DNA of 64,000 nucleotides, from NCBI GenBank assembly GCA_964016885.1, contig OZ024740.1, positions 64,542,001 to 64,606,000 of the forward strand. Direction: 5' to 3'. Within the stretch, counting starts at the first letter, position 1. The number at the start of each line of letters is the position of its first letter. The position numbers and the translations under genes were made by a program. Shown in pieces: positions 3,992 through 6,226 of this stretch. Source of the stretch: Eledone cirrhosa. Taxonomy: Eukaryota. Below the pieces are notes generated by a model that was not told the origin of the DNA, did not search any database, and saw only the letters and a program-made list of their open reading frames with translations.

Positions 3992-4101
3992 TGGGTCTAT
4001 ATATATATATATATATATATATATATATACATTATGAAGAGAGAAGAAACATTTAGATATAATTAGTAATAAAATGTATCATACCTAAACTGCTCCTAAA
4101 T

Positions 4102-4191
4102 TCCTCGACTACGTAGTTTCGTGGCATAAACAAAAACAATATATCATAAAGATATAGAGTCCTTGCGAGGTCTGCCGACTTATCAAGAGGA
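4102..4191 (-). ncRNA. Hammerhead ribozyme (U3-A8 variant), copy 1
   Basis: Reverse complement of 5029-5118. Confidence 0.75.
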
Positions 4192-4696
4192 TACCTCATT
4201 TTACTAGTCTCAAGAACGCGTCTACACGACGTGAGAAAGAATCCCAAAAGGCGGAGGGGGAGATAGTCACGCGATATAACGGTCGAGAAACAGAGCTAAG
4301 CCTCTTATAACCCCGAAGAAAATACCACGGAGGCGGAGGGGGTATTTATATCGAGGCCGTAGAAGAGGTGGTGAAGAAGGCGAGAAGTATGAGGAATGGA
4401 AGCTTTCCAGCTGTCCCCACACCTCAAAGATTGCTCGACCAGAGGGAGTTATTAACAATATATTTAGAAACACACAGATACATGCGGACACACACATATA
4501 TACATGAATGCATCCGCACCCAACTGTGAGTTAAGGGTGCCAACTTCACCGATGTTGCTCAATGAATGACTGGGACAGCCCAATTCAGTTGAACTAGACT
4601 GAACCAGTATCAGAGTTAAAAATACATTATGAAGAGAGAAGAAACATTTAGATATAATTAGTAATAAAATGTATCATACCTAAACTGCTCCTAAAT

Positions 4697-4786
4697 TCCT
4701 CGACTACGTAGTTTCGTGGCATAAACAAAAACAATATATCATAAAGATATAGAGTCCTTGCGAGGTCTGCCGACTTATCAAGAGGA
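4697..4786 (-). ncRNA. Hammerhead ribozyme (U3-A8 variant), copy 2
   Basis: Reverse complement of 5029-5118. Confidence 0.75.
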
Positions 4787-5028
4787 TACCTCATTTTACT
4801 AGTCTCAAGAACGCGTCTACACGACGTGAGAAAGAATCCCAAAAGGCGGAGGGGGAGATAGTCACGCGATATAACGGTCGAGAAACAGAGCTAAGCCTCT
4901 TATAACCCCGAAGAAAATACCACGGAGGCGGAGGGGGTATTTATATCGCGTGACTATCTCCCCCTCCGCCTTTTGGGATTCTTTCTCACGTCGTGTAGAC
5001 GCGTTCTTGAGACTAGTAAAATGAGGTA

Positions 5029-5118
5029 TCCTCTTGATAAGTCGGCAGACCTCGCAAGGACTCTATATCTTTATGATATATTGTTTTTGTTTATGCCACG
5101 AAACTACGTAGTCGAGGA
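5029..5118 (+). ncRNA. Hammerhead ribozyme (U3-A8 variant), copy 3
   Basis: tcctc-TTGATAA-gtcggca..tgccac-GAAA-ctacgtag-TC-gagga: stem I tcctc/gagga, palindromic stem III, GUC cleavage triplet. Confidence 0.8.
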
Positions 5119-6226
5119 ATTTAGGAGCAGTTTAGGTATGATACATTTTATTACTAATTATATCTAAATGTTTCTTCTCTCTTCATAATGTATTTTTAAC
5201 TCTGATACTGGTTCAGTCTAGTTCAACTGAATTGGGCTGTCCCAGTCATTCATTGAGCAACATCGGTGAAGTTGGCACCCTTAACTCACAGTTGGGTGCG
5301 GATGCATTCATGTATATATGTGTGTGTCCGCATGTATCTGTGTGTTTCTAAATATATTGTTATATATATATATATATATATATATATATATATATATATA
5401 TATATATATATATATATATATATATATATATATATATATATATATATATATATATATATGGGGAAGTATGTGTGTGTGCTTGTATTTGAAAGTGTGTTTA
5501 TGTAAATATGGGTATGCATAGTTGGGTTTATATTGTGTCAATGTTATATCTATGTACATGCTTAGATATCGAGTAACGCATCTATACATTTATTATCATT
5601 TTTCTCATAAATATTTTATTATAGCCTTTCTCGTTTGTCCTTCCTTTATTTCTCTTTGTTTTTGTTTTTCCTTTTTTTCTCCCTTTTTCCTTTCTTGCAT
5701 TATTCCGTTTTTTTTTTCTTTTTTCCGTTTCTTTTTCTTTTTCTTTACTTTATCCTATTTGCATCGGTTCTCTTCCGTGTTTTCTTAAGTATGCATACAT
5801 CTGTCCTATCACATACTTGTCAGTATACAAGTATATGTGTAGCTGTGCCTGTGTATATGTGAGACTATATATGCTTCGCTATATCCGAGTGTAAGACTGT
5901 AGCCATTCCCAGTTCAACCCCATACCAGTCCATCAACGCATAAATGTGTGAGTGTGTATGTGTGTCCGTCTAGGCATGACGAAATAAATGTTTGATCACC
6001 CTAAACGCTTCACTAACAACCTACTAAATTTGATAAAATAAATTTCTATCGGATTTGACTGTAGCACAATAAAGTAAAATCATTATCTTGCTAATAGGCC
6101 CAGCTTCCTTATCTTTTCTTTCCCACACAAACCTCATCAATACACTTTGCTCTCTCCAACCCTAGCCGCAGTGAACAGATATTTTTTCTTGACTCCTTAT
6201 AGAAAGATTTATTTTAAATCGTGTTT

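Follow-up and report, generated by a model that had tools for sequence, protein, structure and literature searches.

A head-to-head insertion of a 595-nt repeat with a predicted hammerhead in Eledone cirrhosa represents a high-copy family of probable non-LTR retrozymes with the insertion signature of Penelope-like elements

The locus at positions 3,998-5,459 of the window (i.e. the whole 64,000-nt stretch of E. cirrhosa DNA that was analysed) is a head-to-head insertion of an ORF-less 595-nt unit into (TA)n, and is one copy of a young, high-copy, non-autonomous family. The reading preferred here, with a probability of roughly 0.7, is that the element is a non-LTR retrozyme copied by the reverse transcriptase (RT) and endonuclease (EN) of a Penelope-like element (PLE) from two internal start sites, likely on one circular monomer RNA. 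The narrower proposition that a non-autonomous element is being moved by PLE machinery is very probable.

A perfect direct repeat with an offset of 595 nt was observed (4,027-4,353 and 4,622-4,948, identical at 327/327 positions), and an inverted arm (4,941-5,362) is the exact reverse complement of 4,453-4,874. Units were numbered such that u1 is the base after the predicted cut, with window positions 4,701 down to 4,107 corresponding to u1-u595. The features of the locus are as follows:

3,998-4,029: target microsatellite (TA)16, left flank
4,030-4,948, minus strand: left arm of 1.55 units, 5'-truncated at unit position 349
4,103-4,190, minus strand: predicted type I hammerhead A, predicted cut 4107/4106
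4,107-4,701, minus strand: one whole 595-nt monomer, bounded by two predicted cleavage sites, unit 1-595
4,698-4,785, minus strand: predicted hammerhead B, identical to A and 595 nt upstream, predicted cut 4702/4701
4,941-4,948: 8-nt microhomology joining the 5'-truncated ends of both arms
4,941-5,362, plus strand: right (inverted) arm, starting at unit position 423 and reading through the cut site
5,030-5,117, plus strand: predicted hammerhead C in the inverted arm, identical to A and B, predicted cut 5113/5114
5,194-5,358, plus strand: 165-nt 'tail' between two fixed ends, unit 81-245, at one insertion end only
5,361-5,459: target microsatellite (TA)49.5, right flank

The left arm ends at a short fixed end, ~77-80 nt past the predicted cut, and the right arm at a long fixed end, ~245 nt past it. 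A target-site duplication is indiscernible inside the (TA)n flanks. An earlier sequence-only reading had placed two same-strand hammerheads, 595 nt apart, at 4,102 and 4,697, within 1 nt of the motif limits given above, and the third, inverted hammerhead-like motif, the 8-nt microhomology at the inversion point and the (TA)n runs on both flanks were all present as it had described. Its report that RT and EN coding is absent agrees with a longest stop-to-stop frame of 90 aa within 4,030-5,361, indicating that the 595-nt element contains no RT plus GIY-YIG ORF. The junction near 4,452, which had been considered as possibly unique to this locus, turned out not to be a junction of unrelated pieces, as the unit continues through this point in the tandem copies and in relatives of 75-80% identity; positions 4,457-4,453 are one of the two fixed 3' ends of the element.

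Each repeat of the 595-nt unit bears a predicted type I hammerhead. The motif consists of a 4-bp stem I (CCUC/GAGG), a long stem II (~60 nt) with a closing G-C, then GAAA and a helix III that is palindromic; its predicted cut is at GUC, and the core (UUGAUAA) contains U3-A8 instead of C3-G8, a covariation known from Schistosoma PLE hammerheads (PMC4209133). An Rfam search returned no hammerhead family at the gathering threshold or at E<=10 (only hairpin miRNA-like noise), the local hammerhead fold alone was not significant (z of -1.0 to -1.7) and the active hammerhead fold lay 2.4 kcal/mol above the local minimum. Because Rfam was silent and the local fold weak, the assignment rests on the core letters, the stems and conservation. 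In the older subfamily described below, the majority base matched the window base at 42/42 hammerhead-core positions as compared to 434/553 positions elsewhere, the core count being about half ascertained (i.e. the 3' half through the query, the 5' 18 positions not). Folding of the circular monomer produced z-scores of -3.9 to -12.9 for the sense strand and -1.5 to 0.05 for the antisense strand (12 shuffles each). Changed pairs still paired in 41/64 and 38/67 cases in two old copies, versus 18/56 and 23/58 in the antisense control. Within this predicted circle the ribozyme would be blocked by other pairing. Cleavage would occur in the tandem transcript, perhaps as a dimer, as is suggested by the palindromic helix III. 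PLE-type hammerheads are reported to be weak in vitro (PMC4209133), and one of nine Xenopus dimers was cleaved (10.64898/2026.07.22.740005).

Genome-wide, a 23-nt core pattern produced 7,458 exact matches on many contigs of the 3.0-Gb genome, and its reversed control none. The first 100 matches listed form 50 clusters spread across 54 Mb, and extrapolation from this density suggests a total of a few thousand insertions. A set of 82 loci was assembled from all 50 clusters, 10 other loci and 22 non-redundant members of 30 further loci, leaving out eight redundant loci of the first 90 and L076, which fell below the 85% filter; 36 long arrays were added later. For the haplotype counts only the first copy was retained at L043 and at L322, where whole insertions have undergone local segmental duplication. 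The diverged L046 and L039 are excluded from mutation spectra, and indel-prone columns were skipped in the haplotype table of the 591-nt subfamily. Unit periods were mostly 595 or 591 nt with a GC content of 42%, insertions spanned 0.1-7.6 units in the place-ordered sample and the longest arm found (L301) measured 6,977 nt, or ~11.8 units. An older subfamily is colinear at 75-80% identity with units of 585-587 nt, the period thus remaining constant (585-595) across subfamilies 20-25% apart. About half of the insertions were head-to-head. The sequence-only reading had anticipated many copies with the same unit junction and no linked RT, and this expectation was borne out: copies of the unit are numerous and lie in tandem at a constant period, and no RT/EN ORF continuous with the 5' end of an arm was found, by coordinates, in 60 fetched loci of 7.5-9 kb.

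The arms of this family end at two fixed points. In the 82 loci, 121/127 arms ended at either u76-83 (63 arms) or u241-253 (58 arms), i.e. ~80 or ~245 nt past the predicted cut and away from the cut site itself, with mostly (TA)n flanks in the first 30 loci. Two-armed insertions combined both ends with few exceptions. Short plus long ends were present in 40 of the 43 such insertions from the 82 loci (one had two short ends and two had an odd end) and in 25 of 27 from the long-array set (two had an odd end). Pooling these insertions (n = 70) gave 65 mixed pairs, one with the same end twice and four with odd ends; mixed ends therefore accounted for 65/66 classifiable pairs versus about half if each arm chose independently (P = 9e-19). 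The place-ordered sample of 24 pairs contained 22 mixed pairs and two with an odd end, and the rule was kept in 11/12 classifiable pairs of the old subfamily, which had five more pairs with an odd end. The window locus also follows the one-short-one-long rule. By analogy with the anole Poseidon protein PAc, which starts reverse transcription at two internal RNA sites delimiting the tail and is predicted to be a dimer (PMC11167929), we infer that the two ends are RT start sites. The earlier proposal that the hairpin form implicates a PLE RT directly was upheld for PLE involvement, on the basis of two fixed ends with one per arm, but not for a single hairpin as the basis. Read-through of the cut site was exact in 389/394 junctions (186/189 in the 82 loci and 203/205 in the long arrays). 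Alignments of the two arms overlapped by 2-11 nt in 22/43 joins, a raw count with no chance control. Fold-back of the cDNA was considered as a general route to the second arm and was rejected, since each arm of L042 and of L061 includes sequence that the opposite arm lacks. Two loci had unusual structures: L085 carries a short internal double inversion, and the inversion join of L074 (5205-5265) contains about five tandem repeats of an 11-nt unit piece, suggesting repeated slippage while joining.

Five young PLE families of this genome (775, 784, 834, 900 and 1217 aa) were sampled by protein search. The 834-aa family is Hydra-type by its CxCX5C/DKT motifs. The 775-aa family, which has Pfam RVT_1, a C-terminal GIY-YIG and a CX4CxxC linker, is a Neptune/Nematis-type PLE as judged from its sequence by the linker criteria of PMC8557442; its copies are 98-99% identical with many intact frames, and its hammerhead gave 11,747 matches genome-wide. 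This PLE carries a U3-A8 hammerhead, and its copies pass into (TA)n at two fixed points, 79-80 and ~143 nt past the cut; the first of these spacings equals that of the retrozyme short end. Exactly one arm was tailed in 23/24 opposite-strand pairs among the first 100 places listed. The 775-aa PLE end motifs, TTTCTTTATA and TTTCTAATATA, match the two ends of the old retrozyme (both TTTCTTTATA) and resemble the long end of the young one. The 784-aa PLE also has a U3-A8 core, with a short end ~124 nt from the cut. Long and short ends were observed in the few pairs read for the 784-, 900- and 1217-aa families, so that the rule points to PLEs generally and not to one family. As the arms of the retrozyme end at two fixed points like the PLEs of this genome, a PLE enzyme is the likely copier. 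No homology of the unit to the five sampled families was detected beyond a GT/AT-rich stretch, nor any alignable pseudo-LTR of an autonomous PLE among them. Because none of the sampled PLEs aligns to the unit, the driver is a candidate and not an identification, and the odds that the 775-aa family drives the retrozyme are put at about even. One insertion of this candidate driver lies within the window:

42,209-46,746: truncated, head-to-head RT plus GIY-YIG PLE, outer limits inferred from (TA)n runs
43,441-45,120, minus strand, and 44,997-45,605, plus strand: its frames
~42,384, minus strand, and ~46,637, plus strand: its U3-A8 hammerheads, one arm being tailed and the other not

Several further observations were made on PLEs. 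In 16/24 of the opposite-strand 775-aa pairs from the first 100 places listed, the two hammerheads lay within 127 nt of each other; such insertions are very small hairpins whose truncation falls immediately 5' of the ribozyme, reflecting either a strong RT stop or a non-autonomous derivative. At L182 (G000:C1:2954200-2955200) a 775-aa PLE hairpin in (TA)n directly adjoins a retrozyme end, and one contig of sequencing run X6 joins retrozyme sequence to letters matching the 775-aa PLE 3' region. Additional hammerhead-like variants occur in PLE 3' regions: that of a 784-aa PLE (L252:6127) has GCAA for GAAA with a U3-A8 core, and that of a 900-aa PLE (L238:3188-3700) contains a possible CCGAAGA core, read by eye. 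Elsewhere in the window, a head-to-head insertion of a Hydra-type PLE of the 834-aa family (CxCX5C linker) occupies 10,000-11,856 and carries 113-bp tandem repeats in its 3' region, each with a CTGATGA core-like motif. A 466-nt inverted repeat of 99% identity (6,708-7,173 and 8,594-9,059), which overlaps decayed PLE endonuclease frames (7,096-7,718), is probably another head-to-head PLE. Further retroelements lie at 25,909 (minus strand), 26,944-27,849 (minus strand), 53,152-54,611 (plus strand) and 56,580-59,990 (plus strand); among these the 775-aa family is represented by a third copy, the 900-aa family by a decayed PLE, and the non-LTR RT elements by one that is broken.

The nature of the copied template was examined using the haplotypes of individual insertions. 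Family-polymorphic sites exhibited 89/6,859 differences (1.3%) among segments of one insertion as compared to 20% between insertions. For the 591-nt subfamily (43 insertions, 12 polymorphic sites, 24 allele patterns), the 506 cells comprised 374 all-major, 130 all-minor and 2 mixed, i.e. 130/132 minor-allele cells were fixed across the whole insertion. Private alleles were likewise fixed through both arms, with three in 7-8 units of L074 and two across 14 segments of L301. One haplotype across units and both arms is as predicted by repeated copying of one monomer. The template was thus probably a monomer or circle, a circle being the simplest such template and the support of the haplotypes for a monomer being indirect. 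None of the sequencing runs on record was listed as RNA, which is neutral as to expression; among contigs from six runs, one jumps back by 595 nt, for which tandem DNA is an equally good explanation. A PLE could alternatively have copied a linear RNA, either a multimeric read-through transcript that was left uncut or a linear monomer on which the RT jumped between templates, in which case the hammerhead would be incidental or involved only in 5'-trimming and no circle would form. Such a template would accord with the anole PLE, for which the hammerhead is dispensable for insertion and uncut RNA is the dominant substrate in vitro (PMC11167929), and 5' ends were in excess just 3' of the cut (u2-32; 20/191 versus ~10 expected, P = 0.0025), which fits some linear templates. 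However, a linear template by itself cannot bring new alleles to fixation throughout an insertion, in every unit of either arm, as was observed in the 591-nt subfamily, L074 and L301. The latter, which is the longest arm found, is not the source of the other sampled loci, because it carries alleles that were absent from all of them. The exactness of the junctions is a further difficulty, as RT template jumps are usually imprecise. A linear template is regarded as unlikely.

Homogeneous arrays could also arise at the DNA level, with short 5'-truncated pseudo-LTR copies being expanded or homogenised by unequal crossing-over or gene conversion; a satellite route of local DNA expansion is discussed in 10.64898/2026.07.22.740005. 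Some post-insertion copying does occur, since 15 private alleles were present in some but not all units of an insertion and L043 and L322 have been duplicated locally. Three observations make DNA expansion a very improbable account of the arrays: divergence between units shows no gradient with distance (0.16% for opposite arms, 0.25% for neighbouring units and 0.32% for units that are not adjacent), longer arrays are internally less diverged (0.24% versus 0.54%) and single-unit alleles (177) far exceed these partial alleles. Least credible of all is that the locus is either a fold-back artefact of the assembly or a doubly truncated pseudo-LTR belonging to an autonomous PLE. The loci read numbered 148 (82 and 36 young, 30 old) of several thousand, and an ORF-linked parent could be missed because the genome search scores only the best candidates. 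The absence of an ORF continuous with an arm in the 60 long loci and the constancy of the period across diverged subfamilies nevertheless speak against a pseudo-LTR, as does a search for a short-stem-II version of the same hammerhead, which gave one match, a variant of the 775-aa PLE motif. An assembly artefact would not pair two different fixed ends.

The allele spectra were examined for signs of RNA editing. A>G changes constituted 14/36 insertion-fixed alleles in the first set and 2/6 in the 36 new long arrays; pooled, they made up 8/23 insertion-fixed alleles versus 7/177 single-unit alleles, with a strand test P of 0.12. For the 591-nt subfamily, 9/12 polymorphic sites were A/G on the RNA strand (P = 0.02). 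None of these A/G sites had a 5' G neighbour, and several of them recurred on different haplotype backgrounds. The A>G excess weakened on replication, and selection for G-U pairing could mimic the A/G pattern; heritable A-to-I editing of the retrozyme RNA is a tentative lead, with a chance rather below one half.

Retrozyme mobilisation through a circular monomer and a PLE enzyme could proceed in five steps. Tandem copies would be transcribed, cut at successive hammerheads into 595-nt monomers and ligated to circles. A PLE protein, for which the 775-aa family is the best candidate, would nick both strands of (TA)n, the observed target. From each nick, reverse transcription would then start at its own internal site, one lying ~80 nt and the other ~245 nt beyond the cut; the ends and their one-per-arm pairing are observed, and the RT starts are extrapolated from PMC11167929. 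The RT would travel past the ligated cut up to ~12 times; exact read-through is observed, and rolling is presumed. Finally, the two cDNAs would join head-to-head, often at microhomology, producing the observed structure. A more specific version, to which slightly less than an even chance is given, is that two different start sites on a single 595-nt circle of RNA are engaged by a PLE dimer, each serving one nicked target strand, and that the dimer rolls around the circle. Each insertion would then record one RNA molecule clonally, A-to-I edits included, and the element would have no alignable kinship to its driver, mimicking only the geometry of its start sites.

PLE mobilisation of animal retrozymes via circular RNA has so far been a hypothesis from co-occurrence and pseudo-LTR likeness, and was proposed but not demonstrated by Cervera and de la Pena 2020 (PMC7229834). 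In the present data the insertions themselves show the tail signature of PLEs on a large scale, the start sites can be predicted exactly, a candidate enzyme can be named for which many ORFs are intact, and the haplotypes favour a monomer template. Two questions, namely whether the RT template is a circle and why the PLE tail is confined to one end, are now testable in the existing in vitro PLE assay; the one-ended tail appears here as a near-strict rule of one start site per arm.

At the DNA level, the element is a non-LTR retrozyme by the definition of Li, Clavereau and Pollet 2026 (10.64898/2026.07.22.740005) and, as judged from its letters, fits the class described in PMC7229834: at least two consecutive units carry a complete type I motif, and the unit is non-coding, dispersed and high-copy. 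It also exhibits the marks of PLE mobilisation, with two fixed 3' ends, a one-sided tail, 5' truncation with a head-to-head copy and a microsatellite target. An assignment to the plant LTR retrozymes, in which two LTRs with type III hammerheads accompany a PBS and a PPT, was rejected, given the type I topology and multimeric arrays. Shared with metazoan non-LTR retrozymes are the ORF-less tandem repeat with a type I hammerhead per unit, the GC content of 42%, thousands of dispersed copies, a strongly paired predicted circle and co-occurring PLEs. At 595 nt the unit exceeds the ~170-400 nt of the RNAs tested in PMC7229834 but lies inside the 51-972 bp range surveyed in 10.64898/2026.07.22.740005. 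Unlike known metazoan retrozymes, it has a U3-A8 core with a ~60-nt stem II, and in around half of its insertions two arms meet head-to-head, with a tail on one side and two fixed ends. The word 'inverted' occurs 0 times in the text of PMC7229834 consulted, and no analysis of an inverted arrangement was found in the portion of 10.64898/2026.07.22.740005 used here. A ribozyme blocked within the circle, as predicted here, is described in the Discussion of PMC7229834 as typical of plant and not most animal retrozymes, and 24/57 Xenopus families have an alignable PLE pseudo-LTR (10.64898/2026.07.22.740005), whereas none was found for the present unit among the five PLE families sampled.

The closest parallels to the insertions lie with PLEs. 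EN+ PLE insertions carry an inverted 5'-truncated copy and a tail of 30-40 bp that is often confined to one end (Craig et al. 2021, PMC8557442). Their 5' truncation, inverted copy, one-end tail and AT-rich or (TA)n target are all reproduced here; the present element differs in having no ORF, a tail of 165 nt versus 30-40 nt and arrays of up to ~12 units. PAc, which nicks and extends both strands of AT-rich DNA in vitro (Frangieh et al. 2024, PMC11167929), likewise produces two fixed 3' ends downstream of the hammerhead, but without the start-site difference between strands by which the arms here are almost always distinguished. The hammerhead resembles those of Schistosoma Cercyon PLEs (Cervera and de la Pena 2014, PMC4209133) in the U3-A8 covariation, a palindromic helix III suited to dimers, a G10.1-C11.1 pair and a bulge in helix II, but differs in its much longer helix II and its occurrence in tandem ORF-less units. 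No report of the tail rule in a retrozyme was found in the literature searched, a scope that most subscription papers lie outside. The retrozyme class, the PLE link and the one-sided PLE tail were already known, whilst what appears to be new is that all three occur together, and quantitatively, in a retrozyme whose arrays are clonal.
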